Assembly: GCA_026770705.1 (NCBI GenBank)
Contig: JANJGN010000005.1
Coordinates: forward strand, 26,040,001-26,104,000
Direction of reading: 5' to 3'
DNA length: 64,000 nt
From: Isurus oxyrinchus
Taxonomy: Eukaryota
In this document: positions 1,415-24,820 of the stretch, one piece after another
Numbering within the stretch: the first letter of the stretch is position 1
How the letters are laid out: the number at the start of each line of letters is the position of its first letter
Notes under the pieces: model-generated
The model's input: the letters and a program-made list of their open reading frames with translations, nothing else
Told to the model about the DNA's origin: nothing
Database searches by the model: none
Position numbers and translations under genes: made by a program

Positions 1415-2161
1415 AGGTCAAAGGAGACCAATTTAAAGGAGGTCGGAAGCAAAATAGGTTTGCCATTTTTCCTTTCAGTTCTGTTGCCTGGGTTTTGATC
1501 AGATTGATGGAACAAAAGTCTTGGGCCTGTCAGCTGTATCCACCTTTAGGTAGTCTCAACGTCACCTGGAGTATATTTGTGTAACAGTACAGAGCTGTCA
1601 ATAATTCTACAGCACAAGGTGTTAAATAAGCAGTCTCGTTTTCACAAAAGCAACAAGAGAAGTGGATATGGAAAATGGTATAGTGTTAGAGTACTTACTT
1701 TTCATAGAATGTGCTCTATGCCTGAGGGTTTAATTTCCTTTGCTAGTGTACAGGCTGTATGCTATTTTAATATTGTCACAAATCTAGTTAAATTAAGTTA
1801 GTTCAATTATTACACACAGGAAAGCATTAACCACTGTACTTCAGAAGAAGGAAAATCTTGTGACCAGGGAATACTTTGTGAAAACACTGGGTACTGAAAG
1901 GGTAAAGGGCTAAAAATTAATTTTCTCCCATTTTCAGGCATGGGAATGTGATTTGCAATCTGCCAACACCCGGTCCCATTGAGGTAGGCAACATGCAAAC
2001 TTTTTGCTGCTCTCTCATTTGCATGATGTTAGCATTTGGCAGAGCCTGACCCATGTTGTTAGCTGCCTGAACACTCAAGAGGAGCTTAGCAGCCTGTGCG
2101 GTTAGCATGTATTCCCGCTAGCCTGCAGCTCTTACAGTTAGCCTGTCCCTCTTGAAGGGAA

Positions 2162-2396
2162 AACAAAAACAGAATTACCTGGAAAAACTCAGCAGGTCTG
2201 GCAGCATCGGCGGAGAAGAAGAGAGTTGACGTTTCGAGTCCTCATGACCCTTCGACAGAAGTTCTGTCGAAGGGTCATGAGGACTCGAAACGTCAACGCT
2301 TTTCTTCTCCGCCGATGCTGCCAGACCTGCTGAGTTTTTCCAGGTAATTCTGTTTTTGTTTTGGATTTCCAGCATCCGCAGTTTTCTTTGCTTTTA
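2162..2396. mobile_element. Palindromic non-autonomous Penelope-like mini-element, copy 1
   Basis: 100-bp inverted arms (2161-2260 / 2262-2361, 2 mismatches), a 35-nt tail (2362-2396) and direct repeat CCTCTTGAAGGGAA at 2148-2161 and 2397-2410. Same sequence family as the 3' end of the PLE at 61487-62403. Confidence 0.85.
2260..2297 (+). ncRNA. Minimal type I hammerhead-ribozyme-like motif (variant core), mirrored on the minus strand
   Basis: GTT-CTGTCGA-A-GGGTC-ATGAG-GACTC-GAAAC-GTC-AAC: stem I GUU/AAC, stem II GGGUC/GACUC, GAAA, loop-less stem III and a GUC cleavage triplet. The core has U at position A6. Confidence 0.6.
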
Positions 2397-2696
2397 CCTC
2401 TTGAAGGGAAGCTGTGCTTGTTAGAAGGAAGCAGCTGCTAACTGCCCATATTGCAATTGACTGCTCATAGAAGTTGAACAAATGGAGCACCAGGGAAGAG
2501 AGACGGCTCCCTGGTTGACAGTTGTGTCACGAGAGCCCTTCGTAATGGAGGTCGACAGGAGGAGAGAGTAACATATTTCTGCACAGGGCCAGGAGGCCCT
2601 CAAGGAACACCCGTTAAAGGGAATAGAACTAGGTAGCAAGGGAAGTCAAATCCCAGAGTCTGGTCCCTATGAAGCTTAATGACCTCATGTGGGTGA

Positions 2697-3009
2697 TCAA
2701 GGCCAGTGAATGTATCTTTGCATGATACCTCTTATTCACAGATCCTCTAACTTATCACTATTCTAAATGTTCAACCTGAATCCTGACTGCGAGGGACTGC
2801 TGATGGTGAATGATGTGATGTGGTGCATTGAACAGCGTGAAGATCAGTGAACTCACGTAGGTAGTCAAGGCCAGTGAATGTATCTTTGCATGACATCTGA
2901 TATTCACAGATTCTCTAACTTGTCACGCTGTTCAATGCACCACATGACATCACTCACCCATCAGCAGTCTCTCACAGTCAGGATTTAGGTCTAACATTTA
3001 GAATAGTGA
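2697..3009. repeat. A-B-spacer-A'-B(inverted) duplication
   Basis: 2697-2758 is repeated directly at 2865-2926. 2755-2840 is repeated in reverse complement at 2923-3009. Confidence 0.85.
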
Positions 3010-3011
3010 TG

Positions 3012-3229
3012 TGTTTCATGCAGCAAGTGGTTAGGGTGTGGAATGCTCTATCTGAGTATGCTGGAAGCAGGTTCAACTGAAGCATTCAAAAGGGAATTAG
3101 ACTGTTATCTGAAAAGGAAGAATATGCAGGGTTACGGGAGAATGGCACTAGGTGAATTCGGAGAACTGGTGTAAACATGATAGGCCAAATAGCTTCCTTC
3201 TGCGCTGTGACAATTCTGTGATTCTGTGA
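3012..3229 (+). mobile_element. CR1 3'-end fragment
   Basis: GTGGTTAGGGTGTGGAATGC...GGCCAAATAGCTTCCTTCTGCGCTGTGACAATTCTGTGATTCTGTGA tail. Confidence 0.75.
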
Positions 3230-3364
3230 GATGCTCTGCCTCATCCTCATACAACCACTAATGATTCCCAGACTCATAGGCATCTCTCAAAGCCTCCAGC
3301 TATTCAGCTATGGCAGGCACTTCACTCAAACACAGTGCAATGCAATCAGAAATTATTTTGTCTC

Positions 3365-4760
3365 TTTCTTTTGCAGGGTAAGTTCATATACAAGCACAGA
3401 GTATAGGGCAGAACCGAAGTGGGCCAGGCACAATTACAACACCTAAGCCCTACAGAGGAGATAGTCTCCATATCCTGTGTCCAGCTGTGACAGAGCCCGT
3501 AACTTTCAGCATCACACAATGACATTCAGGATGATGCCTTGTTCCTGCCTTTTTCCTCTTCTGAACATCCATCTTACCCATGCCTTGGTACTTAGCATGA
3601 AGTGCAAATGGTGTGACCACCGACATCTTGCTTTCCATTCTACCCAACTTCCCTCACCCCAAACCCTTCCCTTCTAATTTTCTGCATTCAGAGATGCAAG
3701 AACCACTGCCTGCCCTGCCACAGTGATCTCAGGAGGAAAAGCAAGAGAAACACCTCATCACTGAAGAAGAAGCACCATCACTTGTTCAGACACTCGCTGT
3801 TACCAGCTCACATATTAGCGCTGTATAGTTTAAAGTGCATATCTAGATGTGGTACGTGGTGAGTGTGCTGCAGCCACACAATGGGAAAGGAGGATAGTGC
3901 CAGCTCACTGGAGGTCAGCGTCACATACAAGGTGTACTGCAGGGAACTCAGAAAAGGACTCTGATGGATGGCTCACAGGAAAATGCTGATGAGCATACAC
4001 GCCAAAATACTTGCTGCCTTGCAGGCCTGCCAGTCTCTTGTCGTTGCCAAGGAGCATGGAGGAGTCCTGCTCCAATTACAAGTTGGAGCTCATCCTTTCA
4101 GCATGAAAGTGGTGGCCAACTCCATGACAGCACTTGGGAGTTCCAGCCGTGATGCAACCTCTGATGACCAGTGTCTCAGTTTCCATTGCAGCACAGCCAA
4201 AAGTCACCAAATGTCTCAGTGCCTCAATGGAAGCTCAGACTGAAGTCATGGCAAGCTGCCAGGCAGGCTCAGACTGCTGCCATCATGGCTGCAGATACCA
4301 CAGCTCAAAAGGGGCATGCAGGCTCTCACAGCAATCCAGCAATCTGTCCTCCAACAACATGCTAGGATTGCACAGGCACCACCCCAGGATAGTGCTAGTG
4401 CCACCGTGGTGCTTGAACCTTCAGTCCTCTCTCAGGATGACAGTATTCATTGTTCCACCACTATCATTGCACCAATGCCCTTGCTGGTACCTCCCAGCCA
4501 GCCAGTGCAGACTGTTGCTACCCATCCTAAATATTGAGGTGGGGCAGTCTGAAACCAGGCCTTATAGACCCAGAGCTGCTCAAGGTCGTCCTGAAAGAGC
4601 AGCTGAAGTCTCTCCCATTTAAAGTCGGCAGCATTCCAAGAGCAATGCTGCAACCATTGGGTTAACAAAGTGTAGGAGCACAAGTACAGGCAAAGGCACA
4701 CATAAGGCAGGCATTATAAGAATGGACAAGCGTGAATAGTTCATTTTTAATTGGAGATAT
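3365..4760 (+). mobile_element. Decayed PIF/Harbinger Myb/SANT-gene remnant
   Basis: After a polypyrimidine-AG, the sequence reads GKFIYKHRV*GRTEVGQAQLQHLSPTEE, resembling the RTGGG...LSPxEE segment of Harbinger Myb proteins. Degenerate low-complexity coding sequence follows. Confidence 0.4.
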
Positions 4761-5009
4761 TCCTGGATAAAAATGTTGTGAAAAGATTTTTCTTGGTGGC
4801 TTTTATTGCAGGATTTTGGCCACGGGGCCCGGTGACAGTCCATCACAGATCGATGAGAAGGTGGGGAATAGTGGAGCCATAATGGAATTGACTCAAAATC
4901 AAGATCCTGGCGCCCATCAGCAGGGATGCACTGACTGTCAATAACACCCCAGCTATAGGCTTGAGACCCGTGAGCCCATATATCTGCCCATTAAGTTGCA
5001 GCACAGATA

Positions 5010-5112
5010 TAATTCTGAAGAACGGTCCTTTACCTGAAACATTGCCTGTTTCTTTCTGCACAGATGCTGGCAGAACTGCTGAACATTTCCAGCATTTTCT
5101 GTTTTTATTTAC
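5010..5112 (+). mobile_element. Solo PLE pseudo-LTR fragment with degenerate hammerhead motif
   Basis: CTGAAGA-ACGGTC-CTTT-ACCT-GAAAC-ATT followed by CACAGATGCTGGCAGAACTGCTGAACATTTCCAGCATTTTCTG. Confidence 0.65.
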
Positions 5113-5489
5113 CATGACTCACTGTTTTCTGTTCTTAAGCAAATTTTTTTAATCCAAACTGACAATGACCCTGCTATTGTATGAGTTACAATTTTGAAAA
5201 CTAGCCTTTTCAGCCTTCTTACTTTGTCAAGCTCTTTCTTAAAACCCATATAGGCAATATTTACCACACCTCCATCAACTTTCTCTGTTATTGAATTAAA
5301 AATTCAGTAAGATTAATCAAATATGATTTGTCTTTTACAAATCTGTGCTGGCTTTCCAGAGAGAATGATGAACTCATCTCTTGTCACAAACAGGGCCTCT
5401 GTTACCTCCAGGATGCAGCTATGGACAGCATACTGGGAGATATTTTCTATGTTGCCCATTCCGAGCTGGAGTGATGTATCACTTAGAAG

Positions 5490-5740
5490 TTATTCATGGG
5501 ATGTGTGTGACTCTGGCAAGGCGAGTATTTATTGCCTATCCCTAATTGCCCTTGAGGAGGCGGTGATGAGCTGCCTTCTGGAACCACCACAGTCCATGTG
5601 GTGTAGGTACACCCACAATGCTGTTATGAAAGGAGTTCCAAGATTTTGGCCCAGTGACATGAAAGAACAGCAATATAGTTCCAAGTCAGGGTGCTGTATG
5701 GTTTAGAGGGGAACTTATAGCAGGTGCTGTCCTTGTTCTG
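5490..5740 (-). mobile_element. LINE family B 3'-end fragment (resumes at ~6652-6720 after a Harbinger insertion)
   Basis: Shares the ATTCATGGGATGTG...TTTATTGCC...CCCTAATTGCCCTTGAG tail with the copies at 11935, 14537 and 39220. Confidence 0.75.
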
Positions 5741-5759
5741 CAAGGATGGTGACCTTATT

Positions 5760-6651
5760 GGCCACTGGCAGTACCAACCTCGCCCTGCTGTGAGGCTGCT
5801 AGTCCTGTTGCAGGTGGTGGCATAGTTCTGTGATCACCTCCTTGGCAAATCTCCTGGGTGAGGCAGAGGTAGGGGAAGTGGTTCCTGAAAACTTATGGTG
5901 GGCTAAACCTATTGTAGCAAGCCTTCCCCCTCTCCCACTGTGCAGAGTTTGCCCTCTCTGCAGCCTCAGCTCTATTTGCCTGTTATGTTGCCAACTCAAA
6001 GGCATTGCAAATACAGCCCCAATCACTGTTGTAGCTTTTATGTGGACGGGCCAGAAAACCCCTCAGCCCTCTCTGTGAGGATGCAGTGACACTCCCTGCC
6101 AAATCCAGAAACTCACCACGACAACTCCAAAAACACTTCAGATATTTCCACAAACTTTACAATAGCAGGTGAGTCAAAAACACCTCCTCTGCCAGTTGGA
6201 TGCCTGTCCCCTTAAATAGTGTTGGTGGGGTTGGGAGGTTTCTCATGGAGCTGAACGCATGTCATGATCTGTTGACGTTGATAGCTTTCAGTGCATGCTT
6301 GGCACGGCTATCCTAGCAGCCTCCCCAGCAAGGGGCACCTTGTGGTCTGCGCCTTAAGTGGCACCGGCATATGCCATTTTCTGAGCTTGGGGCTTCCATA
6401 GTGGTGCTGTGGAGCCCAATTTCACAGCCAAAATGTTCAAAGCCCTATCAGTGACATACATATGATCATTTGAATATTTTTCCCCACCAACATCAGGTTA
6501 GGCAGCCAGGAATCCTGCTTCAGCCATTTCCACCCTACCAAGTAGTTGGCGGAGGTTCTCCTGCCGCCATGAGACTGATGCAATGTCTCCCTCCATTAAG
6601 TGAGCCTGGTTGCCATGGTTCCTGCCGTGACAGGCCGCATTAAATTCAGCC
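5760..6651 (-). mobile_element. PIF/Harbinger terminal fragment with transposase N-terminal remnant
   Basis: Terminus GGGCTGAATTT at 6651. Minus-strand peptide RFAKEVITELCHHLQQD resembles the HARBI1-type N-terminal helix region. Confidence 0.5.
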
Positions 6652-7022
6652 CCTGACTTGTGCATCGTAAATGATGGACAGGCTTTGGGGGTGTCAGGAG
6701 GTGAGTTACTCACCGCAAAATCTGGATCTGTTTCCAGCCCAAGATTCCTGTCCCCATGTTATTGTGTGTGAAATTATAAAGTGCTGAAAATTCATTCACG
6801 TATGATCATTTGGGCATCTCAACCCAACTCTCCTGAATTTAAAATGTTGTCAAGCTTATGTAGTGGGTAAAAACAATTTGCAAGTAAAAAGCTTCACAAT
6901 GATAAAACCATTCTAGAATTTTGAATGCTGTGCAGCGATCCATAGTTGTCTGCTCATGCAACAAATATCTAATGATCTGGGACAGCATCCACTGTTCACA
7001 AGCTAATTCCTATGAAAGGTTC

Positions 7023-7028
7023 TTTATT
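7023..7028 (-). terminator. Candidate distal polyadenylation signal of RAB31
   Basis: Minus strand reads caaTGTAcattcAATAAAg: a UGUA (CFIm) element just upstream and GU-containing sequence downstream. Confidence 0.5.
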
Positions 7029-7469
7029 GAATGTACATTGAAACGGCTTATGTTCAGCAACACTGCAATGTTAATAGTATTTACTATACAGTATTAGTAA
7101 TGAGAATAACACATACATCGTACCCATTTAATTGACATGTACTACATGGGACCAGCCCAATCTAAAAAATAACACATATTTTAATTGAAAATGCGCTTAG
7201 CATTAAAATGAGTTACACTTGACTGACAGAATACCCAAATTGGTGCCAAAGAGTCTGGTCATGAAAAGCCCTGTGATTATGATGGAGTAGACTTATACAA
7301 ATATGAATTCTTCAACTTATACCTTGATCACTAAGGCACATGGATAGATTTCTTTAGAACTGCAGCCAAGTTTCCCTTTTGGCCGCTAATGTCATATAAA
7401 AAAAATTGTGACGAATTTGCAGCATTTCCATTATTATGATTACACCAAAAACAACATCTAATTGGGATG

Positions 7470-7683
7470 AAAACAAAAAAACTGCGGATGCTGGAAATCC
7501 AAAACAAAAACAGAATTACCTGGAAAAACTCAGCAGGTCTGGCAGCATCGGCGGAGAAGAAAAGAGTTGACGTTTCGAGTCCTCATAACCCTTCGACAGA
7601 ACAAGGACTCGAAACGTCAACTCTTTTCTTCTCCGCCGATGCTGCCAGACCTGCTGAGTTTTTCCAGGTAATTCTGTTTTTGT
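7470..7683. mobile_element. Palindromic PLE mini-element, copy 2 (inside the putative RAB31 3'UTR)
   Basis: Perfect 80-bp inverted arms (7504-7583 / 7604-7683), a 20-nt loop, a 34-nt tail (7470-7503) and TSD ATCTAATTGGGATG at 7456-7469 and 7684-7697. Confidence 0.88.
7565..7602 (-). ncRNA. Hammerhead-like motif in RAB31 sense orientation
   Basis: Minus strand reads GTT-CTGTCGA-A-GGGTT-ATGAG-GACTC-GAAAC-GTC-AACT. Confidence 0.55.
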
Positions 7684-8347
7684 ATCTAATTGGGATGTTT
7701 TTATATAGCAAATTACACCAAAAAGCCAAAAGGTGTGATTATTTAGTAATCAAGGTTAAGTTCTGCATGATCAATGATCACAGGGCTATTAACCTGAAGC
7801 AATTAAAGATAACAATGGCAGCAGAGGTTCAATTATTATGAAACAAAGCGGTCCAATAATTGTGTAAATTGTCAGTTCATATCAGTAATCTGCATTTCAT
7901 AAATCAGTAAATCTTTCTAATTTACACATCATAAAGGTCGTGGAATACAGGGGCATTGAAGCTAACATTATTTTGCCACACCATGGAGTGAGAACTGCGT
8001 GATCAGTTCTCAACCTGAGCCAGCTTTCACAGGAAGGTACTGAGCAGAAGCTGGGTGATTCTCCACAAAGACGAGAGGAGTGAAAATAAATGTAGAGACA
8101 CTCTATGCTATCCTTGTATTCTTCCTAATGGCCGACAACAAAAGGCTTTCACAGAAGTCTAGGAGCATGGCACTCACCTGCCTCTTGTGCAGGATGGTAC
8201 ATTGCACATTGGATTGAAATAAATGAGAGCAGGGGCCAAAAACATAAACATCATACATAATATGATAAAGCCTTCAATTTGTATTGTGCGTTCATTTGAA
8301 CACTGCAGCAGAATAAAACCAATTTGCCATTCCATGCATGGTGGCAC

Positions 8348-8445
8348 CAAGAAGGCAGCTCACCTTCTCAAGGAAAATGAGGATGGGTAATAAATGCTGG
8401 CCTTGCCAGCGATGCTCACATCCAGGGGATGAATTAAAAGAAAAA
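8348..8445 (+). mobile_element. LINE family B 3' tail fragment
   Basis: AAGAAGGCAGCTCACC...GGATGGGTAATAAATGCTGGCCTTGCCAGCGATGCTCACATCC. Confidence 0.7.
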
Positions 8446-10229
8446 TCAATTTAGTGATGCATTGTGACATAAAGTTTTACCCTTGCAAACAGGTTAGCAA
8501 CCATTCAGTTAAATTGATTTCTGATGGACTTTTGTGCAAAGATCCTGGAGCTAAATCTGTGTAACATGAAGCAAGTAACTTGACACAGCACTGGAATTTC
8601 AAGATTGTCACTGCCTCTCTGCTCATGCACTAGAACCAGACTCTTAAAAGGTGGAAAATGCAACTGTCAACTTACAATTATTCTACATGTTTCCATTTGA
8701 AAATATTTTAAAGAAATAATGATAGGTAGGCACCATTTATATACTAGCACCAAATGATGCTTTGGGCATTGAAGACTGCACCTTAAAGACTGGGAATACA
8801 CCAAGAGCTATGTTAATACAATACCCAACCCCTCCTTAACAATGTGGAATGAATTTACAAAAGAAAAATGGAACCCGTATGAAATTCCCATTCATAATGG
8901 CTGCAAGTGAAAGGTAGGACTAGAAGAAAGTTTTCTCAATGCTATGGACTAAAGAAAAAAAAACGAGGGAGAATCCGTCTACAGAACCCCAATCACTGCT
9001 GACTTTATTTGACTTTTTAAATATAAAGCCTTCAGAACATTGTTTCATCATGATAACGTGATAGTTTCTCAAACACTGTCAACCAGAAAAGGAAAACCTG
9101 TAGTTAGTCAAATATAAGATTTTGCTGTTATCAACAAAGAGAATGGGCTGCTGGAAGTGGATGGTGTGGTCTCAGTCTATGCCAATTATGAAAAGTCCTT
9201 TCTAATAGAGGCTGGAAGAAATACTCCTACCTACCCAGATTAACAACTCTTCAGTATGATTGGTTAAGGAGATACACAGTTATTTGCCCTGTTCACACAG
9301 CTCCCAGATTCTCTGCAGGAAGTGCCGTACTGTGTCAATCTTCCACTTGCAGCAACTTGCCCTGCAAAGGTATTGCTCCTGTACCTTCCAGTGGGAGTCA
9401 CTAGCGAGTGAGCAGAGTAAGAATCTTGCCTGATCCTCCTGATTCCAAAGCTGATGATGTCAACTGCCCCCCTATCGCTGAGACCAGTTAACAGTGCAGG
9501 CCAAGGATCGATCAGGGGGTCTTCTTGCTCTTCATAGTTCACTGGCACACAAGGCAATTCATTCTTCCATCGAGTTCATACGATTACCAAAGGAGTAATT
9601 TTCACCTTTGTATGACCATGTGCATTAACACTTTTAACTATGGAGCACGAAAGAAACAGTGAAGAGTTTTAACTGGCGTTTAGTTTATACTGTTTCATAG
9701 CCATCTCGTAAGTTCTTGATCAGCTCAGAATAAATAAACAGACCATTTAGTAATGTGTAACTGGGACTATTATGAGTTAAAATGCTCACCCATGGGCTGT
9801 GCACATAAATTAGGATTACACCAAAGAAGTTCAATTTGCTTCTGACTGCTTGTAACCTAGAGTGTCCACAAAAAGCGGAACCGACTTCAGTCACTTTGCT
9901 CAGAAAAGGAACAGGAAAGGGCAGAAAAGAAGTCAGAAGGAAGGAAGGAGAACAACAAAACGGAGAGCTGGCATTTCAATATTTTCATTCATAGTGCAGG
10001 TATTCTCTCTGAAAACTCTTACAGTAACTTCATGAAAGCAGGACAACAGTGTGCTAGAATGAAAGAGTCAGCAGCCCAACCACTGACAAATAACCTTGAG
10101 ACTGCTAAATAATTCAAACAATAACACAAAAAAATGGGTTTTCTTCTCTTTTTTTTCCTGTTTGGCTGCTTGGAATGAGGATGTTGATTCAGCGTTGCTC
10201 AGGCTTGGTCTCCCAACACAGCTGGCTGC

Positions 10230-10327
10230 TCAGCAGCAGCGCTTGCTCGATTGTACCTGGTGTCTTCCAACTTTGAAAGCTCCATTGCTATTAACCTGAG
10301 AGGGATCCAAAGGTGGAATCTGTTGAC
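10230..10327 (-). CDS. RAB31: RAB31 last coding exon (equivalent to exon 7), 98 nt: (S)QQIPPLDPSQVNSNGAFKVGRHQVQSSKRCC*
   Basis: tgctttttcag|GTCAACAG...TGCTGCTGA. QIPPLDP matches the RAB31 hypervariable tail, it ends in the CC geranylgeranylation motif, and the phase matches the previous exon. Confidence 0.95.
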
Positions 10328-11702
10328 CTGAAAAAGCACAGTTGGAACATTAATGATTACTGGGGTTATCTTCAGGACAACCAGTTTTTAAAATTCCCAT
10401 ATTCTGGGTTTACTGAATTGGCACATCAATGATTCATGTGTCCCATGCATGGTACACGGTTAAAATGTCATAACCTGTTCTTTTGCCCTTTACAAATCTT
10501 TCGGATCCAACTAAACTGGGCCTTAGTTTAACATCTGAAAAACACCAATGCACTGAAATGTGGTCTTGAGCTCATGGCTTTCTGACTCAAGGCAGTTCTA
10601 CCTTTGAGCCAAACTGACACTCAAGTTAGCTAAATTCACCTGGCTCAGTGTTGAGGGCACTGGAGCTGCTTCACTCAGTATTCTGAGCCATGTTACCCTC
10701 TCCCCATTCCCCTCCCATCCAATAACTCTGCTAAAGAAAACGGCTTGCATATTGATGTTGACTCAGGGTAAAATTGGGCTTGGTTCTAATCTGCCTGATC
10801 AGTTTACTGAAAATTACCTGATTCCTCATGTGTTGTTCACTGAAATACAGACTGGAAATGAGCTTGGCCAAGAGAATCCCCTATAATGCAATGCAGCACT
10901 GTGACCTTTCAGAGTTTAATTGTCTCTTGAGAGAATCGAGTATCAGGGCAGCTCTTTCTTCTTTAAACTCTCCATTATGTGTAAGCTTGTACTCTATGGA
11001 GTGAAAATACGCATCTGGCCTGCATTGCAGTGAAGTCTGCAGTGTGTTATACTGCCAGGTGATTTCCCTGGACTGCATCTTTCCTCTTCACAATTCAGCA
11101 AACAGTTGTGAGAGAATTCCATGGATGAGAGCGCGATTTAAACCCGAGAGCTGAAAACCAGACTAACAAACAGTTTGCTGCAACGGTTTGGTGCCTTCGC
11201 CTGAAGTAAAACAAATCTTTTATGTTCAAGTACATTTCACAAGAAAGACAAAGGGGGCTGAATGCCATTGTTTCCCCAATTACTGAAATCATGAGAGTCA
11301 AAAAAGCTGAAAGTCATTTAAATGAAATTCCAGGTGGTGATTTTGATTGTCTGTATACTATATGGTGCAGATTCATTCTGTTTGGTTTCTACATCTGTTT
11401 TTATTTTTGATGCACAAGCAAAAGCTTTGATTAATCTCCTGAGTCATGACCAGACATGAACAATCATTGACCATTCTTAAAACATACTCTCATTTTTTTT
11501 AAAAAGCCTCCAAACAAACGTTCATGATTTCTCAGTTAAACCAGAATGAACAATCAGATATAATTACTGGGAATAAGTCAGCCAGCCAAATCTTGCCTCT
11601 GATTAAAAGCACCATTTTATTGTGAATGAAGAATGGTTTACTCTGCCGCTAGCATACAGAATAGGCAGTATCTGACACACAGATCATACTAAACTGAAAT
11701 AC

Positions 11703-11803
11703 AGGGTGGAACTTTATGGTCCCACTGAAGTCAATGGACTTTTGAACGGCTCACTAACTTTTATGGCCCCACCCCACCACAACAGGGCCTTAAAATACTG
11801 CCC
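11703..11803. mobile_element. Short Harbinger-type MITE
   Basis: Imperfect TIRs GGGTGGAACTTTATGGTCCC ... GGGCCTTAAAATACTGCCC. Confidence 0.45.
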
Positions 11804-12049
11804 AAGGTGTATTTATCCCACTGACCTCAAGTAATAGGATTCTTGAAAGACTGAGTCTGTTTCTGTTCCTAAGGGACATAAGTACTTCATATTGACAGTA
11901 CTTTCATTTTACATTCTATATATCTTTAGTAAAATATTCTTTCATGGCATGTGGGCGTCGCTGGCTAGGCCAGCATTTATTGCCCATCCCTATCTGCCCT
12001 TTAGAAGATGGTGACGAGCCACCTTCTTGCACCCCTGCAATCAATGGGG

Positions 12050-12422
12050 TTGGCGGTGGAGTAGTGGTATTGTCACTGGACTAGTTATTCAGAGACCAAG
12101 GTTAATGCTCCGGGGAGCTGGATTCGATTCCCATCCCAGTAGATGGTGAAATCTGAATCCAATAAAAATCTGAAACTAAAAGTCTGATGATGACCATGAA
12201 ACCATTGCCAACTGCGGTAAAAACCCAGCTGGTTCACTAATGTCCTTTAGGGAAGGAAATCTGCTGTCCTTACCTGGCCTGGCCTACATGTGATTCTAGA
12301 CCCACGGCAATGTGGTTGACTCTTAAATGCCCTCTGAACAAGGGCAATTAGGGATGAGCAATAAATGCTGGCCTACTGGCCTAGCCAGTGACGCCCACAT
12401 CCCATGAACAAATAAGAAAAAA
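12050..12422 (+). mobile_element. tRNA-derived SINE sharing its 3' tail with LINE family B
   Basis: A-box-like TGGAGTAGTGG and B-box-like GGATTCGATTCC. Body GGTTCACTAATGTCCTTTAGGGAAGG. Tail GGGCAATTAGGGATG...AATAAATGCTGGCC...GCCCACATCCCATGAA. Confidence 0.85.
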
Positions 12423-12467
12423 TATGGTGCAGCTACATCCATGGTGCTGTTAGGAAGGGAGTTCCAA

Positions 12468-13234
12468 GAGTTGAATTTTATAAGGGTGGCAGTGGGGAGA
12501 GGGTGTATTGCTTGTCCCCCTGGAAGTTAATAATATCACACTGTGGGTGGCCTTAACAAGCTGAGGGTTGGACTTCCGCACCTCTGTGGAAGGAAGTCCC
12601 GACCTTGGCCAGTCTGACTGCCCAGCAGCTCTTGAAGTCCCAGCAGTGCCAGAAGAGAGTAATGGGTGCTGATGGGATTGCAAGCAGTCCCCAGGAAGAA
12701 TTCTGACAAGGATCCAAGAGACAGAAAAAAATGTCGAGCCTTTTTGGCCAGGGAGTGATTGGGCAACCGAGGGAGGGGGCGAGGGTGATGGGATGGTGGG
12801 TTTTTGGATGCCAGGTGGAGAGGTACAATGAGGTGTTAAATCTTGCGTGTGGGGTGGGGTGGGGTGGGGTGAGTTGGCCCTGATGTGCACAGTACAGCTC
12901 GCCGAAGGAGGTGTACCCCTTTCTTCAAACTTTTCAAAAACATTTGGTGAAAAAAAAGGCCTTCCGAATCTTGTCTGCCTTCCACTGCTTAGCGTATTAT
13001 GGTAATGAAGTGGACTGTGGTCCTTAACTGCTGCTTAATTAGGCAGATAAGGGCCTCATTAGGCCCAGGGATGGGTGGCCTAGTGGGTGCCTTACCCAAC
13101 ACCTTCATTAGTGGCAACGAGGTGGGATGGGCAGGAATTTTGGGCTAACCACCTGTCATATTTTATGCTCCCCAAACCCACCAAAAACATACCCGAGGAG
13201 GGGGGTGGTCAGGCTGGTGGCCATAAAATCCAGG
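12468..13234. mobile_element. Harbinger-type non-autonomous DNA element
   Basis: Ends GTTGAATTTTA ... TAAAATCCAG. It interrupts otherwise colinear LINE B sequence. Confidence 0.5.
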
Positions 13235-14536
13235 TGCAGTAAAGGAACAACAATATAGTTCCAAGTCAGGATGGTGTGTGACCTGCAGGAAAACTTGCAG
13301 GTGGTGGTGCTCCCATTCATGCTTTTGCTGCCCTTGTCCTTGGTGGAGGTCAACGGTTTGGAAGGTGCTGTCTAAGGAGCCTTGGTGAGTTGCTGCAGTC
13401 CATCTTGTAAACACTGCCACCACTATGCATTGGTTGTGCAAGGAATACATGTTTAAGGTAATGGATGGGGTGCCAATCAAGTGGGCTGCTTTGCCCTGGA
13501 TGGTGTCGAGCTTCTCGAGTGTCGTTGGAGCTGCACTCATCCAGGCAATTGGAGAGTATTCCACCACACTCCTGAATTGTGCCTTGTAGATGGTTGACAG
13601 GCTTTGGGGAGTCAGGAGATTAGTTACTCACCACAGAATTCACAACCTTTCACTTGCTATTATAGCCACAGTATTTACAGGGTTGGCCCAGAACAGTTTC
13701 TGGACAGTCGTAAACCCCAGAATGTTGATAGTGGGGTATTCAGCAAAGGCAACACCATTAAATGTCAAGAGTTGATGATTAGATTCTCCCTAGTTAGAGA
13801 TGGTCATTGTCTGGCACTTAAGTGACAAGTAACATTTGCACCACACATCAGCCCAAGCCTGGATGTTGCCCAGTTCCTTTTGTATCTGAACACAGACTGT
13901 CTCAATGCCTGAGCAGTCGTGAAAGGTGCTGAACATTGTGCGATCATCAGGGAACATCCTACCTCTGACATAATGATGGAGGGAAGGTCATTGATGAAGC
14001 AGCTGAAGATGTTTGGGCCGAGGACACTACCCTGAGGAACTCCTGCAGCTATGTCCTTGAACTGAGACGAATGGCCTCCAACAACCACAATCAACATCCT
14101 TTGTGTCATATATGCCTCCAAGCAATGGAGAGTTTTTCCCCAATTCCCAGTTTTGCTAGGGGCTCCTTGGTACCACATCTGGACAAATAGATCCTTGATG
14201 TCAAGGGCAGTCACTCTCATCTCACCCCTTGAGTTCATGTTTGGATTAAGGCTGTAATGAGGTCAAGAGCTTAGTGGCCCTGGCAGAGCCCAAACTGAGA
14301 GTCAGTGAGCAAATTATTGCTGAGTAAGTGCCACTGGATAGCACTGTTGACGACCTCTTCCATCGCTTTGCTGATAATCAGGAGCATACCGATGGGGTTG
14401 TATTGGCTGGGTTTGATTTGTTCTGCTGGTCATGAACAGGGCATACCTAGCCAATTTTCTACATTGCTGGGTAGATGCACTGTTGTAGCTGTGCTGACAG
14501 CTTGGCTAGGGGCATGGCTAGATCTGGAGCACAAGT

Positions 14537-16660
14537 TTTTTTTAATTCATTTATGAGATGTGGACTTCGTTAGCTGGGCCAAAATTTGTTGCCCATCCCT
14601 AGTTGACCTTGAGAAGTCGGTGGTGAGCACCCTTCTTGAACCACTGTAGTCCATGTGGTGTAGGTACACCCACAGTGCTGTTAGGAAGGGAGTTCCAGGA
14701 TTTTGACCCAGCGACTGTGAAGGAATGGCAATATATTTTCAAATCAGGATGGTAAGTGACTTGGAGAGGAACTTCCAGGTGGTGGTGTTCCCATCTATCT
14801 GCTGCCCTTGTCCTTCTAGATGATAATGGTTGTGGGTTTGGAAGGTGTTGTCAAAGGAGCCTTGGTGAATTCCTGCACTGCATCTTGTAGCTACTGCTCA
14901 TTAGTGGTGGAGGGAGTGAATGCTTGTGGATGTGGTGCCAATCAAGTGGGCTGCTTTGTCCTGGACGGTGTCAAGCTTCTTGAGTGTTGTGGAAGCTGCA
15001 CTCATCCAGGCAAGTGGGGAGTATTCCATCACACTCCTGATTTGTGCCTTGTAGACGGCGGACAAACTTTGGGGAGTCAAGAGGTGGGTTACTTGTCACA
15101 ATATTCCTAGTCTCTGACCTGCTCTTGTAGCCACAGTATTTATATGGCTAGTCCAGTTCAGTTTCTGGTCAATGTTGATAGTTGGGAATTCAGTGATGGT
15201 AATGCCATTGAACATCAAGGGGAGATGGTTGGATTCTCTCTTGTTGGAGATGGTCATTGCCTGACACTTGTGTGGCACGAATGTTACTTGCCACTTGTCA
15301 GCCCAAGCCTGGATATTGTCCAGGTCTTGCTGCACTTGGATACAGACTGCTTCAGTATCTGAGCAGTCGCAAATGGTGTTGAACATTGTGCAATCATCAG
15401 CGAAAACCCCCACTTCTGACCTTCTGATGGAAGGAAGGTCATTGATGAAGCAGCTGAAGATGGTTGGGCTGAGGACACTACACTGAGGAACTCCTGCAGT
15501 GATGTCCTGGAGCTGAGATGATTGACCTCAAACAACCACAACCATCTTCCTTTGTGCTAAATATGAGTCCAATCAGTGGAGAGTTTCCCTGATTCCCATT
15601 GACTCGTTTTGCTAGGGCTCTTTGATGCCACACTCTGTCAAATGCGGCCTTGATGTCAAGGGCAGTCACTCCCACCTCATCTCGGGAGTTCAGCTCTTTT
15701 GTCCACTTTTGAACCAAGGCAGTTACGAGGTCAGGAGCTGAGTGGCCCTGGCAGAACCCAAACACAGCATCAGTTAGCAGGTTATTGCTAAGCAATTGAT
15801 GCTTGATAGCACTATTAATGACCCCTTCCATTACTTTGCTGATGATCGGGAGTAGACTGATGGGGCGGTAATCGGCTAGGTTGGATTTGTCCTGCTTTTT
15901 GTGTACAGGATACACCTGTGCAATTTTCCACATAGCTGGGTAGATGACAGTGTTGTAGCTGTACTGAAACAGGTTGGCTAGGGGCGTGGCAGGTTCTGAA
16001 GCACAAGTCTTCAGTACTATTGCCGCAATATTGTCAGGGCCCATAGCCTTTTGCAGTATCCAGTGCCCTCAGCCGTTCTTTGATATCACATGGAGTGAAT
16101 CGAATTGGATGAAGACTGGCATCTTGATGCTGGGGACCTCTGGAGGAGGCAGAGATAAATCATCCACTCGGCACAGCTGGCTGAAGATTGTAGCAAATGT
16201 TTCAGCCTCATCTTACGAATTAATTCATTAGCTGAGGGAGGGTGGTATGTGGTAATCAGCAGCAGGTTTCCTTGCCCATTGTTTGACCTGATGCCATGAG
16301 ACTTCATGGGGTCCGGTGTCGATGTTGAGGACTCCCAGGGCAACTCCCTCCCGACTATCCCATTGTACCGCCATCTCTGTTGGGTCTGTTCTGCTGGTGG
16401 GACAGGACATACCCGGGATGGTGATGGTGGTGTCAGGGACATTATCTGTAAGATATGATTCTGTGAGGATGACTATATCCAGCTGTTGCTTGACTGGTCT
16501 GTGAGACAGATCTCCCAATTTTGGCACAAGCCCCCCAGTTGTTAGTAAGGGGAACTTTGCACGGTTGACAGGGCTGAGTTTGCCATGGTCGTTTCCGGTG
16601 TCTGGGTTGATGCTGGGTGGCCCGTCCGGTTTCATTCCTTTTCTGACACTTTGTAGCTTC
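14537..16660 (-). mobile_element. LINE family B copy with APE endonuclease start and RT, internally deleted near 16215-16230
   Basis: Endonuclease motif DIVILTESYL (ORF 16228-16695). RT motifs YRPISLL, DIKAAFDRVWH (15478-16044) and FADD (15096-15413). A-rich tail at 14537. Confidence 0.92.
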
Positions 16661-17006
16661 TCCCCCTGCATTCCACCCATCCCCCCCACCACCATCTCCT
16701 AGCCCACCACAATGGTACCAGAAGAATTCTGCCCACTCATCTTGACAACCATACAATCAACAAACAAAATGCAATTAGTTTTTTTTTTACTTGGCACAGT
16801 AACCACAATAATCTATTACTCCCACGCACCCCACTGAACTAATAGCAACCAAGATCCAAATGAACAGTGCAATGTCACAAAACCTCATCCCATTCAAAAC
16901 TAAACCTTCCATTTTTCACATGTAGAACAGGACGCTGGTTACCAAAAACAAAGATCAGCCGGCACCTGGGTGTCTGTTGCCTTTTACAATCCCGAGCAAC
17001 AGCCCA

Positions 17007-17335
17007 TTTAGGATGATCAGTTGAGTTCGGAACATGGCTCATTTACACTTGCTAGATGCAACACACATTCATACTCAGGGACCCGTTCTTGGTAAACAAA
17101 AGGAATATGTTCAAGTTTTGCACCTCCTTTGAATTACCCGGGAGCTTGAGTCTATGGCTACCCATTGTTTTCTCCATAGCAATGCCTCAGCCAGTCAGAG
17201 ATGGCTTGCCACTAATCAGCACGCTTTTCTCCTGCAGTCTAACTTGATGTGATTGTTTGAAATTTGGCATTCTTGCATTTGTCCTGATAAATGCAAGATG
17301 AAAAATTTCAGCTTCACGTCTCTCTTTTCAGCAAA
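17007..17335 (+). mobile_element. Second PLE family: GIY-YIG C-terminal remnant plus pseudo-LTR with degenerate hammerhead
   Basis: Translates MIS*VRNMAHLHLLDATHIHTQGPVLGKQKEYVQVLHL (LEAxxI...PxL-like). At 17280-17310 it reads TGTC-CTGATAA-ATGCAAGAT-GAAA-AATT-TC. Confidence 0.55.
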
Positions 17336-17819
17336 ATCCTGAACAGCTTGTGTTCATGTTTAGACACCTACTCTCTCAAGAAAATAACTTTTTTATGTTT
17401 GAGGTTCTATCGCAATGACACTGAAGTACGTATTCCTGGTTAGTTGAGTGCATTTTCAAACTCTCTGCCCTGCCTCCTTCAATAGCTAGGATTAGAAATC
17501 CTAATAAGTCATTCAACATTGCTGCAGAAATTCAAACCTTCACACCTTGTTACCATTAATTATATATGTCACACAACAAAGACAAGCTTGCAGTGCATTC
17601 ATATTATTTACTAAAGACTAGCATTTGGAAGATGATAAAGCTGAGAACAATTCTAGTCTTGATTCTGATCAGATTTTGAGGAGATTTATGTCAATCACAT
17701 TTTCTGATCCAATGCAATGTCCTGAAATTTTCCAGTGAACAGTTGCCATGACCACAACACAGTGTAAAATAAAATTTTGGCTCATTGCTTATTGATGATT
17801 ACTGAGGTGATTTTTTTTT

Positions 17820-18040
17820 TACAGACTGAGCTGTTGTGATCTGGAGTGTGCTGCCTGAAAGGGTGGTGGAAGCAGATTCAACGGTAACTTTCTCAAGGGG
17901 ATATTGATAAATAGTTGAAGGGGAAAGATTTGCAGGGCTATGGGGAAAGAGCAAGGGGAGAGTGAAACTAATTAGGTAGCCCCTTCAAAGTGCTGGCACA
18001 GGCACGATGGATCAAATGGCTGTAAGATTCTATGATTCTA
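17820..18040 (+). mobile_element. CR1 3'-end fragment
   Basis: CTGCCTGAAAGGGTGGTGGAAGCAGATTCA...GATTCTATGATTCTA tail. Confidence 0.75.
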
Positions 18041-18221
18041 GGTCATAATTATACAGAAATTATGGCAAAATACACATCAGTTTCTGTGCCAATTTTACCA
18101 AGTAGAACTAACTCCCAAATTTCCCACGGAGTTCACTGGCCAGGCTAGAATGTAAAAACCAGCATTAAACAAGTGGAAATTCAATGGTATTACCTTATAT
18201 TTTAACTTTGATCCCATAATT

Positions 18222-18900
18222 TTTAAAAATTCATTCCTGAGATTTCAGCACTGCTGGCTAAGCCAATATTTGTTGCCCTCCACAGATGCCCTGAGAAGGT
18301 GGTGGGGAGCAGCCTTCCGGAAACGCTATGGTCCATTTTGTGTAGGTACCGCACCCACAGTGCTGTTAGGAAGGGAATTCCAGGATTTTCACCAGTGACA
18401 GTGAAGGAACGGCGATATATTTCCAAGTCAGGATGGTGAGTGACTTGGAGGGGAGCTTCCAAGTGGTGATGTTCCCATGTGTCTGCTGCCCTTGTCCTTC
18501 TAAGTGGTAGAGGTCACGGGTTTGGAAAATGCTATCGAAGGTGCCTTGGTGAGTTCTTGCAGTGCATCTTGTAGATGGTACACACTGCTGCCCCCGTGCA
18601 TTGGTCATGGAGGAAGGGAATGTTTATTGTGGTGGATGAGGTGCCAGTCAAGAGGCATGCTATGTCCTGGGTGCTGTTAATCTTCTTGAAAGTTGTTGAA
18701 GCTGCACTCATCCAGGCAAGAGGAGAGATTCCATCACACTCCTGACTTGTGTTTGTAGATGGTGGACTGGCTTTTGGGGGGTCAGGAGGTGAGTTATTCG
18801 TCACAGGATTTCTAACCTTTGCCTGCTCTTGTAGCCACAATGTTTATAGGGTTGGCCCAGTTAAAGTTTCTGGACAATAGTAAACCCCACAATATTGATG
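18222..18900 (-). mobile_element. LINE family B 3' fragment
   Basis: SPLAWMSAA and CTIYKMHCKNSPR peptides plus the shared tail. Confidence 0.85.
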
Positions 18901-19320
18901 GCTGGACAGAGCTTTAAATTACTAATTGTTTTAATCATTTTATAACCCAGAATATCTGGTTGTTAATGTTGTTGATGTTTATGGAGCTTACTGTGTGAAA
19001 ATTTACTTCAACACTTGCTTACCTTGCTGGAACTATTATACCTCAAAAAGGTAGCTCATTGGCTGTGGAGCTCTTTGGGATATCATGAAAGTGCTATATA
19101 AATGCAAGGTTTTAAATTACTTTCTTTCTCCCTAATCCCCAGTTACCAAATCCAACTGTAAAGTCCTGTTGCCACCTCATGTAATTCAGCATGGACCATG
19201 GATTGAATACAAGACTCCCTCCTGGTCAATTCTAAACCAGGTAATGCACTTAGTAAATAAAGCATCAAGAGAGCAGCTCACCAACATCCTGAAGTTGATA
19301 AATAAATGATAAACAGTACC

Positions 19321-19548
19321 CAATATAAAAGCAAAAAACTGTGGATGCTGGAAATCCAAAGCAAAAACAAAATTACCTGGAAAAACTCAGCAGGTCTGGC
19401 AGCATCTGCGGAGAGGAACACAGTTAATGTTTCGAGTCCAAATGACCCTTCAACAGAAAGGGTCATTCGGACTCAAAACATTAACTGTGCTCCTCTCTGC
19501 TGATGCTGCCAGATCTGCTGAGTTTTTCCAGATATTTTTGTTTTTGAG
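19321..19548. mobile_element. Palindromic PLE mini-element, copy 3 (more diverged)
   Basis: Inverted arms centred near 19455, a ~35-40 nt extra tail on the left and TSD AAACAGTACC at 19311-19320 and 19549-19558. Minus strand reads CTGTTGA-A-GGGTC-ATTTG-GACTC-GAAAC-ATT-AACT. Confidence 0.82.
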
Positions 19549-20229
19549 AAACAGTACCTGTTGTTCACTCATCAAATACATTTTGGTACAGTAAAAGTCA
19601 CATGCTTGGATGTAGGCTAATACCTGACTGGTTTCCAATACCTGACTGGTTTCCAATCCTTATCAGTCAATGCCATATGCAAATTGCTACTTATTGTCAG
19701 TGCCTCCAGCATCAATCTGTCTAAATATTTCCACAAAAGAAATGATAAGTAGCAACACTAATTGCCAGGGATGGGAATGTGGGTTCGGGCAGGGTCAGAT
19801 TAATGTATGGGCCTATCAGTTCATGCATGGACCAGGGACCTCCAGTAAAACAGACAAACACTAGCTCAAAATATCCTGGTATTTGAATTTTTTTTTGTTT
19901 TATTCATTCATGGGATGCGAACATCGTTAGCAGAGCCAGGATTTTTATTGTCCATCCCTAATTGTCCTAGAGAAGGTGGGCTGCCCTCTTGAAACACTGT
20001 CATCCACATGGCATAGGTACTGCAGCAGCTGTGGTTCAGTTGATAGCACCCTTGCCTTTGAGTCAGAAGGTCATGGGTTCAATTCCCATTTCTGAACTTG
20101 AGTATAACAATCTAGATAACATGGTATGAAGTCAATGTTGTACAGTTCAAGGTGCCATTTTTTTGGTGACAAGTTCTACCAAAGCCCTGTCTGTCTGCTT
20201 ACCTGGGTGTAAACAATCTCATGGTACAA

Positions 20230-22569: not shown

Positions 22570-24656
22570 CAAGGTTTTTCCTCACATCCCCCCACTAAAC
22601 CTCCTGTCCCTCACCTTGAACTTATGTCCCCTTGTGACTGACTCTTCAACTAAGGAGAACAGCTGCTCCCTATCCACCCTGTCCATGCCCCTCAAAATCT
22701 TGTACACCTCTATCAGGTCGTCCCTCAGTCTTCTCTGCTCCAATGATAACAACCCAAGTCTTTCCAATCTCTTCATAACTTGAATGTTTCATCCCAGGCA
22801 ACATCCTGGTGAATCTCCTCTGCACCCCCTCCAGTGCAATCACATCCTTCCTATAATTTGGTGACCAGAACTGCACACAGTACTCCAGCTGTGGCCTCAC
22901 CAAGGTTCTATACAACTCCAACATGACCTCCCTACATTTGTAATCTATGCCTCAATTGATAAAGGCAAGTGTCCCATATGCCTTTTTCACCACCGTACTA
23001 ACATGCCCCTCTGCCTTCAGAGATCTATGGACACACACGGCAAGGTCCCTTTGTTCCTCAGAACTTCCTAGCGTCATGCCATTCATTGAATACTTCCTTA
23101 TCAAATTATTCCTTCCAAAGCGTATCACCTCACACTTTTCAGGATTAAATTCCATCTGCCACTTATCTGCCCATTTGACCATCCCGTCTATACCTTCCTG
23201 TAGCCCAAGACACTTAACCTCACTGTTAACCACCTGGCCAATCTTTGTGTCATTCGCAAGCTTACTAATTCTACCCCCAACATAGTCAGCTATGTGGTTT
23301 ATATAAATGACAAATAATAGGGGACTGAGCACAGGTCCCTGTGGTACACCAATGGACACTGGCTTCCAGTCACTAAAGCATCTTTCTGTCATCACCCTCT
23401 GCCTCCTACAACTAAGCCAATTTTGAATCCACCTTATCAAATTACCTGGTATCTCATGTGCCTTTGCCTTATTTATAAGTCTCCCACGTGGGACCTTGTC
23501 AAAGGCTTTGCTGAAATCCATATAAACTACATCAACTGCACTACCCTCATCTACACACCTGGTCACCTCCTCAAAAAATTCAATCAAATTTGTTAGGCAT
23601 GACCTCCCTCTGACAAAGCCATGCTGACTATCCCTGATCAATCCTTGCCTCTCCAAGTGGAGATAGATACTCTCCTTCAGAACTTTCTCCAATAGTTTCC
23701 CTACCACTGACGTGAGACTCACTGGCCCGTAGTTCCCTGACCTATCTCTACAACCCTTCTTATATAGCGGAACCACATTAGCTGTTCTCCAGTCCTCTGG
23801 CACCTCCCTCGTGGACAAAGAGGAATTAAAAATTTGGGTCAGAGCCCCTGCAATCTCCTCCCTTGCCTCCCTCAGCTGTCTGGGACCTGAAGATCTGTCC
23901 ACTTTTAAGCCTGCCAAAACCTCCAATACTTTGTCACACCCTATATCAATTTGTTTAAGAACCTCGCCATCTCTCTCCTCGAGTTCAACATCTTTATCCT
24001 CATTCTCTTGGGTGAAGATGGATGTGAAGTATTCATTCAACACTCTAGCGATATCCTCTGGCTCCACCCATAGATTGTCCCCTTGGTCCCTTATGGGCCC
24101 TACTCTTTCCCTGGTTATCCTCTACCCATTGATATACTTATAGAATATCTTGGGATTTTCCCTACTTTTACCAGCCAGACCTTTCTCATATCCCTCTTTG
24201 CTCTCCTAATTGCTTTCTTAAGCTCCACCCTGCACTCTCTGTACTCCACTAATGCCTCTGCTGATTTGCTTCCCTTGTACCTGCTAAAAGCCTCTTTTCC
24301 TTCTCATCGTATCCTGACTATTTCTGGTCATCCATGGTTCTCTGGGCCTGTTATTCCTTCCTATCACCCTAGAGGGAAAACAATGAGCCTGTACCCTCTC
24401 CATTTCCTTTTTGAACAGCCCCCATTGTTCCTCTGTAGATTCCCCCACAAGTAGCTGTTCCCAGTCTACATTGGCCAGATCCTGCCTTATTTTACTAAAA
24501 TCCACTCTCCCCCAATCCAAAACATTTTTTTGCAACTTGTCGATTTCTTTGTCCTTAACAAACTTAAATTGTACTATGTTGTGGTCGCTATCGCTAAAAT
24601 GCTCCCTTATCACCACCTCAGCCACCTGTCCGGCTTCATTCCCCAGAATTAGGTCC
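22570..24656 (-). mobile_element. CR1 LINE, 5'-truncated, with the longest RT remnant in the window (371 aa ORF 22952-24067)
   Basis: VDVVYMDFSKAFDKV, GVPQGPVLSP and [13 protein letters not shown] motifs. The catalytic (F/Y)ADD has decayed to LAND, so the copy is inactive. Confidence 0.93.
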
Positions 24657-24820
24657 AGCAGCCCACCTGCCATCGAAATGGCGTTTATCCCAGGAATGTA
24701 TAATTAATGCAGTGGGTTTGGGAAGATACGGTGTGAAAAGCCACCATTGCGGCCAGCGGGTAAAACGTTGTTTTACCATGCCGCTACCGCACTTAGTGCG
24801 AATCTGGGACAATTCCACCC
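24657..24820 (-). mobile_element. Harbinger terminal fragment homologous to 63090-63225
   Basis: The reverse complement GGGTGGAATTGTCCCAGATTCGCACTAAGTGCGGTAGCGG aligns with GGGCTAAATCACTCCAGATTTGCACTAATTGCGTTAGCGG at ~63090. Confidence 0.65.

Follow-up and report, generated by a model that had tools for sequence, protein, structure and literature searches.

A shared 5′ edge in hairpin mini-insertions of a Penelope-like element in Isurus oxyrinchus, and its possible origin in pLTR transcription start

How Penelope-like elements (PLEs) come to leave insertions with inverted ends and short tails is still treated as an unsettled question (PMC11167929, PMC8557442). A 64,000-nt stretch of the Isurus oxyrinchus genome (GenBank assembly GCA_026770705.1, contig JANJGN010000005.1, positions 26,040,001–26,104,000; the whole stretch is referred to here as the window) poses this question in reduced form: that is, it contains three mini-insertions made of nothing but the end of a PLE pseudo-long terminal repeat (pLTR) in two head-to-head copies, and the tailed copy begins each time at one and the same edge, the start of a hammerhead-like motif. 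What sets that edge? We weigh the evidence for the reading to which we assign a probability of roughly 0.5: that the mini-insertions are run-off products bounded by the pLTR transcription start and not by a ribozyme cut.

Three mini-insertions and their common 5′ edge

We counted unit positions from window position 2262 (+1), which places the hammerhead core, C3 to A9, at unit +3 to +9, and we used the 135-nt pLTR end in the long arm of copy 1 as the reference unit for a search of the whole 64-kb window. The insertions lie where a sequence-only reading of this DNA had placed them, at 2162–2396 (copy 1), 7470–7683 (copy 2) and 19321–19548 (copy 3), and all three have the architecture that it described: a head-to-head inverted pair consisting of a long arm with a tail and a short arm without one. 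In copy 1, the short arm (2162–2260, minus strand, unit +1 to +99) is identical at 97/99 positions to the long arm (2261–2396, plus strand, unit 0 to +135, tail 2361–2396), which carries a hammerhead-like motif (2264–2298, plus strand, predicted cut 2294/2295) whose core is A6U, the conserved A6 being replaced by U. In copy 2, the long arm (7470–7602, minus strand, unit 0 to +133, tail 7470–7503) reads in the same sense as the host mRNA, and the short arm (7604–7683, plus strand, unit +19 to +98) matches it at 80/80 positions. In copy 3, which belongs to an older subfamily, the long arm (19321–19458, minus strand, unit +1 to ~+140, tail 19321–19361) and the short arm (19458–19548, plus strand, unit ~+9 to +97) agree at 81/89 positions. 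The tails, on one arm only, measure 36, 34 and 41 nt, respectively. Compared with the long arm of copy 1, that of copy 2 is identical at 128/131 positions and that of copy 3 at 120/133.

Each copy has its own target-site duplication (TSD), all three differing in sequence (plus-strand coordinates): 14 bp at 2148–2161 and 2397–2410 for copy 1, 14 bp at 7456–7469 and 7684–7697 for copy 2, and 10 bp at 19311–19320 and 19549–19558 for copy 3. Among 5000 random draws at equal spacing (draws inside the 31–34 kb tandem array being skipped), chance flanking repeats reached at least 10 bp in 2 and at least 14 bp in 1. The junctions between arms are likewise all different: a single G joins two full arms in copy 1, one filler base precedes a short arm that starts at +19 in copy 2, and an A run precedes a short arm that starts at ~+9 in copy 3. 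With short arms starting at +1, +19 and +9, and with hairpins centred near +60 also present in the genome, the fixed strand-switch point proposed earlier does not hold; the independence of the three insertions, their minimal size, their origin from a PLE pLTR and their lack of coding sequence do. Only copy 2 is overlapped by an open reading frame of at least 100 aa, a single frame that runs from stop to stop. The hairpin of copy 2 has a predicted folding energy of −170.7 kcal/mol (z −22), and the 17 Rfam matches at E ≤ 5 include sub-threshold microRNA-precursor matches attributable to the palindromes and no hammerhead.

Two other element classes and a wider search were considered. A class II miniature inverted-repeat transposable element (MITE) was rejected, given a one-sided tail and TSDs of 10–14 bp of unlike sequence instead of symmetric terminal inverted repeats and a fixed TSD. 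A Pol III-transcribed short interspersed nuclear element (SINE) was rejected as well: no tRNA, 5S or 7SL head lies over any copy among the 17 Rfam matches, and the unit is wholly pLTR-derived. A 30-nt unit pattern had no match in viral and metagenome contigs; a 21-nt pattern had none in viral sequences, seven in metagenomes and four at genome loci, and all 11 were set aside as chance, matching over just 21–29 nt in GC-rich context.

The three copies almost certainly belong to the known inverted-plus-tail type of PLE insertion. Truncated insertions of endonuclease-bearing (EN+) PLEs with an inverted 5′ copy, a 30–40 bp tail and a TSD have been described (PMC3846280, PMC8557442), as have an inverted truncated copy, tail and TSD in PMC8969392. 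The mini-insertions share with those of PMC3846280 and PMC8557442 the head-to-head inverted pLTR, the one-sided tail, TSDs (8–10 bp there, 10–14 bp here) and a cis requirement for the pLTR only; they differ from them in comprising only the last 100–135 nt on both arms and in having a tailed arm that starts from a fixed edge. A fixed edge of this kind is not described in the literature consulted.

That edge, which had been noticed in the sequence-only reading and is borne out here, coincides with the start of the hammerhead motif in 3/3 tailed arms, at unit −1/0, 0 and +1. Under uniform truncation over 100–135 nt, three ends within 3 nt have a probability of 0.0018–0.0010, calculated post hoc. 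The unit search returned 11 arms in seven insertions, plus one 15-nt piece. Six of the ten pieces without an attached body start at −1 to +2, the edge also beginning the short arm of copy 1, an old solo arm at 5013 and the 15-nt piece near 57732; the other four begin inside the unit, at +9, +19, ~+20 and ~+35. Upstream pLTR sequence is present in 0/10 body-free pieces and occurs in the window at just two places, the body-attached copies, and no window arm ends 2–250 nt upstream of the edge.

The 3′ ends fall into two zones, at ~96–100 (six arms) and ~133–140 (five arms): the short arms of copies 1, 2 and 3 end at +99, +98 and +97, and the long arms at +135, +133 and ~+140. Each zone lies 14–24 nt past a repeated TTCCAGCAT-like motif, and two end zones, each following one repeated short motif, fit two priming sites. 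In the older family, unit +53 to +59 can pair with +80 to +85 or +110 to +116 (for example, 62320–62385); each of these downstream pairing motifs precedes one 3′ end zone, and the first is altered in the young subfamily.

Evidence from reads came as contigs assembled from four of 24 runs (organisms A and B) and placed on window positions 1800–11000, with copy 3 and both body-attached PLEs falling outside that stretch; it comprises the best 15 of 2182 joints (different joints, every repeat counted), the best 12 of 607 filler rows and 32 contig pieces. In three DNA-like runs, the summed depth of the bins that cover copies 1 and 2 is 1.1–3.8 million vs. 11–36 for the lowest single-copy bins; without being a copy number, this shows that the family is present in very many copies in organisms A and B. 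Eight of the 12 filler rows are head-to-head joins, seven of them distinct (one join appears in both orientations). Among the distinct joins with known filler, an arm or the filler starts at −2 to +3 in five of seven, and both arms start at +57 to +87 in two of seven; the edge is therefore not confined to the window, and hairpins have other centres as well. The depth of these joins, 174–529 vs. 9–31 for single-locus contigs, hints at repeated formation or re-copying. Thirteen of the 15 joints were set aside (filler ‘not known’, sides shorter than 31 nt); they may be long unique contigs bridging two repeat copies or, alternatively, arms running into sequence that the reference lacks. Most of an apparent hotspot near +53 stems from such set-aside ‘not known’ rows, and it may be an alignment artefact. 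No empty-site joint, with a single TSD copy, is among the 15 joints, which carries no weight either way.

Transcription start as a possible source of the edge

The promoter reading draws on two old truncated PLEs in the window, both on the plus strand, that retain a pLTR attached to a body. One (57648–58620) has an inverted arm (57648–57726), the 15-nt piece, which is in sense orientation and starts at the 5′ edge (~57732), an endonuclease-region remnant, another repeat nested at ~57958–58190, and a pLTR that extends to unit ~+99. The other (61487–62403) has a zinc-finger linker, a GIY-YIG-type endonuclease remnant and a tailed unit that runs to 62403. The unit had been assigned to the same family as the pLTRs of these GIY-YIG PLEs, and this part of the claim stands; the elements themselves are older relatives and not parents of the mini-insertions, because identity of their arms at 57649, 58521 and 62268 to the unit is only 77–83% (75/97 to 107/131). 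Pfam returned no match for three window PLE fragments, and there is no reverse transcriptase (RT) in the window. Of 17 candidate homologues of the 61487 remnant, six passed; the remnant is 41% identical (E 3e-18) to one protein with an RT match (P0005), the aligned region of which has a sub-cutoff GIY-YIG match (E 0.0044), an indirect indication that the 61487 body is probably of GIY-YIG type. The remnant also has a CX4CX2C linker, of the type (CX2-5CxxC, before the endonuclease) that is known from Neptune/Nematis PLEs (PMC8557442).

A TATA-like heptamer begins 31 nt ahead of unit −1 in each of the two body-attached pLTRs, at 62235–62241 and at 58488 (both plus strand), against a background of 57 matches to the TATA pattern in 128000 positions. 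In the 62268 copy, the A within an initiator-like TTCAG falls at unit −1 (62266). The −31 spacing rule for TATA boxes and the initiator consensus were the basis for reading the pLTR as a putative promoter, and by these motifs the edge may be a transcription start. Related observations have been published: a rotifer pLTR carries TATA and initiator-like motifs, and pLTRs suffice for trans-mobilisation (PMC3846280); PLE transcripts begin in the upstream pLTR (PMC6765202, PMC2377424).

According to the transcription-start reading, an endonuclease-bearing PLE protein would act on an RNA that starts 2–4 nt before the hammerhead core. The TATA/initiator-like pLTR promoter, supplied by a full tandem element or by any truncated copy with its 3′ pLTR kept, would start RNA at unit −1/0. 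Both target strands would then be nicked, the staggered nicks giving rise to the 10–14 bp TSD, and RT would be primed within the RNA at two sites ~35 nt apart, at ~+99 and ~+135. Where the priming sites are those nearest the RNA 5′ end, each complementary DNA (cDNA) would run off after 100–135 nt. Finally, the two cDNA ends would be joined head to head with 0–3 nt of microhomology or filler, one arm being variably trimmed. The TSDs and the junctions themselves are visible in the sequence. The ribozyme motif would be a passenger at the transcript start, its activity not required. The resulting copies would be dead unless a host gene reads through them, because they lack the promoter. Truncation and a non-autonomous family, put forward earlier as alternatives, would merge, any promoter-keeping copy making a usable template, and trans-mobilisation of any non-coding copy is likely.

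The closest experimental parallel is Poseidon of Anolis carolinensis (PMC11167929), for which the priming step was shown in vitro: the tail is defined by two start sites inside the RNA, nicking and extension take place on both strands, the length of the product tracks the 5′ end of the RNA, and cleavage by the ribozyme is not needed. As with the mini-insertions, the two start sites are a tail apart and ~100–135 nt downstream of the hammerhead, and the priming of both strands and the dispensable ribozyme are further likenesses. The clade is likely different, in view of the CX4CX2C linker of Neptune/Nematis type in the window remnant; at helix II, the young unit has no start codon that would open a long frame; and the main text of PMC11167929 is silent on mini hairpins.

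Several points weigh against a transcription start at the edge. The start site is read from two old, homologous and decayed copies, which amount to a single observation made post hoc; of the two, the 58521 copy has a C-variant TATA box and GG for AG at the initiator position. The promoter is read from these older pLTRs, not from the young A6U subfamily's own upstream sequence. In the 62268 copy, the same site can also be read as a polypyrimidine-CAG acceptor and as a 6-bp mini-palindrome. The Penelope promoter of D. virilis is TATA-less and starts 46 nt before an intron (PMC2377424), and that intron ends at the helix I 5′ end (PMC4209133). The two of seven distinct joins with both arms from +57 to +87 are explained by this reading only as ordinary truncation, and the sample is small, from one 64-kb window.

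A broader version, which we regard as possible but tentative, is that every pLTR promoter, dead truncated copies included, templates promoter-bounded, strong-stop-like cDNAs, since priming lies within the RNA ~100–135 nt from its 5′ end, and that two RNAs held on a protein dimer yield head-to-head pairs that would be the commonest PLE insertion of the lineage. If so, the start site and the two priming sites could be read off tens of thousands of fossil copies, a subfamily whose (A6U) ribozyme is probably crippled would have amplified well, and single events would have seeded host mRNAs with 80–100 bp perfect duplexes. If the edge is a transcription start, so many copies in one genome would also let two-site priming be tested against self-priming by computation alone, and the same copies would test whether the hammerhead matters; should there be nothing special about the edge, the mini-insertions would be ordinary PLE debris of the kind already described. 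We found no description of a promoter-bounded PLE edge in the literature consulted, in which Repbase, Dfam and the figure supplements of PMC11167929 are not represented and may hold one. The available part of PMC5753468 has nothing on such hairpins.

Alternative accounts of the edge

Could the edge be an intron end, set by the polypyrimidine-CAG acceptor before helix I, or the product of self-priming fold-back of nascent DNA on a short palindrome? We consider this unlikely. The pyrimidine run, CAG and 6-bp inverted repeat at the edge of the 62268 copy speak for it, as does the D. virilis intron end, and self-priming at palindromic junctions has been proposed before (PMC3846280). A fold-back would also leave, as a loop, the pattern seen here, with the tailed arm complete in 3/3 copies and the short arm trimmed in 2/3, and two genomic joins among those listed (2258 to 2314 and 2258 to 2318) look like fold-backs. 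However, a spliced RNA should add a shared first exon, and none is present in the five arms at the edge; folding back of the DNA is predicted to be weak (−3.9 and −1.1 kcal/mol); and sense arms of the solo and body-attached kinds also end at ~+99, a position that thus behaves as an independent priming site and not as the stop of a fold-back copy.

It is rather improbable that PLE proteins mobilise in trans a dedicated non-autonomous family, whether with SINE- or retrozyme-like masters or with whole hairpins re-copied from the transcripts of host genes. The near-identity of copies 1 and 2 and the lack of any coding partner above ~83% identity in the window would fit such a family, as would the summed depth over the element bins; the depth of exact junctions would suggest ~10–25 sharing loci, weakly, since depth is not copy number; and short non-autonomous Penelope elements are known in butterflies (PMC6685494). 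Yet three unlike junctions mean that the copies were not copied from one hairpin, tandem direct units are not seen in the window, one 64-kb window cannot show the absence of a young coding partner, and recurrent microhomology joins would give shared junctions too. Non-LTR retrozymes (PMC7229834; bioRxiv 10.64898/2026.07.22.740005) resemble the mini-insertions in being non-coding, hammerhead-bearing, related to PLE pLTRs and probably PLE-mobilised, but they are direct tandem repeats with complete hammerheads and with monomer and circular RNAs; the mini-insertions, being single and inverted, with a variant core and with ends off the cut site, were rejected as members of this class.

We give little credence to ordinary random 5′ truncation plus inversion, with the shared edge a coincidence or an effect of the reader's selection. 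Heavy 5′ truncation, an inverted truncated copy and a 30–40 nt tail are all standard (PMC8557442), the 2182 joints in 1800–11000, all repeats included, are diverse, and centres near +60 exist. The clustering of three independent arms within 3 nt stands against it at P 0.001–0.002 even with ends confined to 100–135 nt, as do two more pieces in older copies that begin at the edge and the lack of window arms ending within the 250 nt upstream.

That hammerhead cleavage, or the hammerhead fold, fixes both the truncation and the strand-switch point, as the sequence-only reading suggested, is very unlikely, and the cleavage form is largely refuted. In favour of it, the edge coincides with the helix I 5′ strand, a decayed solo tailed arm (34312–34418, plus strand, start near unit +33 to +37) begins near the predicted cut but is too decayed to place, and the anole ribozyme cleaves in the presence of the protein (PMC11167929). 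The predicted cut, however, is at unit +33/+34, inside the unit and not at −1 to +1; a template cleaved there would lack the core, and the whole core is retained in 4/4 young arms that pass the cut. RT stalled by structure would be expected to halt 3′ of the fold, not after copying through it. Catalytic mutants of the Anolis element leave insertion unchanged in vitro, and no RNA reads end at the cut (PMC11167929).

The state of the motif argues in the same direction. GAAA, a UH cut site, an extra base before helix II and G10.1-C11.1 are all present, and the palindromic 15.2-16.2 is present in copies 1 and 2 and lost in copy 3. The minimal hammerhead core CUGANGA was rejected for the young arms, in which U stands at position 6 in 4/4 arms reaching the core; older pieces (5013, 62268 and the 57733 piece) have the canonical A6. 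Changes at position 6 lower hammerhead activity, as documented for A6C in PMC3088659, the available part of which does not include A6U itself; we likewise found no A6U PLE subfamily in the literature consulted, PMC11014351 included, though Repbase and Dfam may hold one. The 45-nt motif folds no more stably than shuffles (z −0.51, +0.18 and −0.40), and the helix II pairing probability, 0.16, 0.007 and 0.98 in isolated arms, is 0.0 in 3/3 whole insertions, a prediction that argues against self-cleavage as a dimer in the hairpin form. Compared with the minimal hammerheads of PMC4209133, among which motif pairs 100–700 bp apart on opposite strands are also noted, the mini-insertions share the extra base between 9 and 10.1, G10.1-C11.1 and, in copies 1 and 2, the palindromic 15.2-16.2; they differ in the A6U core, the 5-bp helix II and the shortened helix I 5′ strand, and in that their motifs meet head to head, pair together and cannot fold.

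The chance of an assembly fold-back artefact is negligible: near-perfect palindromes are known to cause trouble in assembly, no listed contig spans the hairpin centre of the window copies, and the lack of a copy 1 junction contig among the 32 pieces carries no weight either way, but the TSDs are exact, the arms unequal (with 2, 0 and 8 mismatches) and the junctions unlike, and both outer, head-to-head junctions of copy 2 are present in contigs of run X1 (6685–7492 and 7663–8403) and of run X5, from another sample (7007–7499 and 7665–8421), the left one also in run X12 of organism B (6688–7492), with junction overlaps of 19–30 nt that, falling below a 31-nt bridging rule, constitute support and not proof.

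In the same sense, as support and not proof, the organism B contig points to a copy 2 insertion older than the split between organisms A and B. At the right TSD of copy 2, the organism B contigs (X6, X12) have 21 letters unlike the window before 7697, and organism A fits.

Host gene and other features of the window

The window lies in the host gene RAB31 (minus strand). Copy 2 is in its last exon (7007–10327, minus strand), which comprises 32 codons and a ~3.2-kb 3′ untranslated region (3′UTR) with AATAAA at 7028–7023. Further minus-strand Rab exons lie near 62776, 53890 and 53290, that at 53785–53892 having its best match to Rab-31 (E 1.2e-18) vs. Rab-22A (2.5e-13). Contigs of X5, which we guess to be an RNA run and which has zero depth in 11/30 bins, have one limit at 10327, at an AG acceptor, and the other 16 nt past AATAAA, at 7007; copy 2 thus lies within the RAB31 3′UTR, ~460 nt before the poly(A) site. 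Copy 3 is within the last intron (~43 kb), and copy 1 is ~4.6 kb beyond the poly(A) site. Copy 2 would, by folding prediction, form an 80-bp perfect duplex in the RAB31 mRNA; long perfect double-stranded RNA (dsRNA) is the kind of substrate on which ADAR and dsRNA sensors act.

The old solo arm that shares the 5′ edge (5013–5110, plus strand) spans unit +1 to ~+100 and has a canonical core. A second splice-acceptor likeness, with a branch-point-like hexamer, a pyrimidine run and CAG, precedes unit +54 in the older pLTRs (62290–62320 and 58550–58578); the young subfamily has CCG there.

Other repeats in the window are unrelated to the unit or belong to other families. A 257-bp palindrome at 2754–3010, with 78% arm identity and no relation to the PLE unit, has a partial direct duplicate at ~2700–2753, and its bin depth of 580–1026 suggests a modest MITE-like repeat family; a possible MITE at 54574–54841 has 70-bp inverted arms (84%) around ~130 nt. 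A degenerate C-rich tandem array of ~2.4 kb (31440–33900) gives rise to long low-complexity open frames. Decayed RT fragments of long interspersed nuclear element (LINE) type, which we take to be CR1/L2-like, lie at 13100–16100, 22950–24700, 25790–26800, 39200–41100 and 49340–50510, some as inverted pairs. Inverted pairs of another short repeat end, 60–75 nt long and 80% identical, are present at 11935–12414 and 59886–60090.

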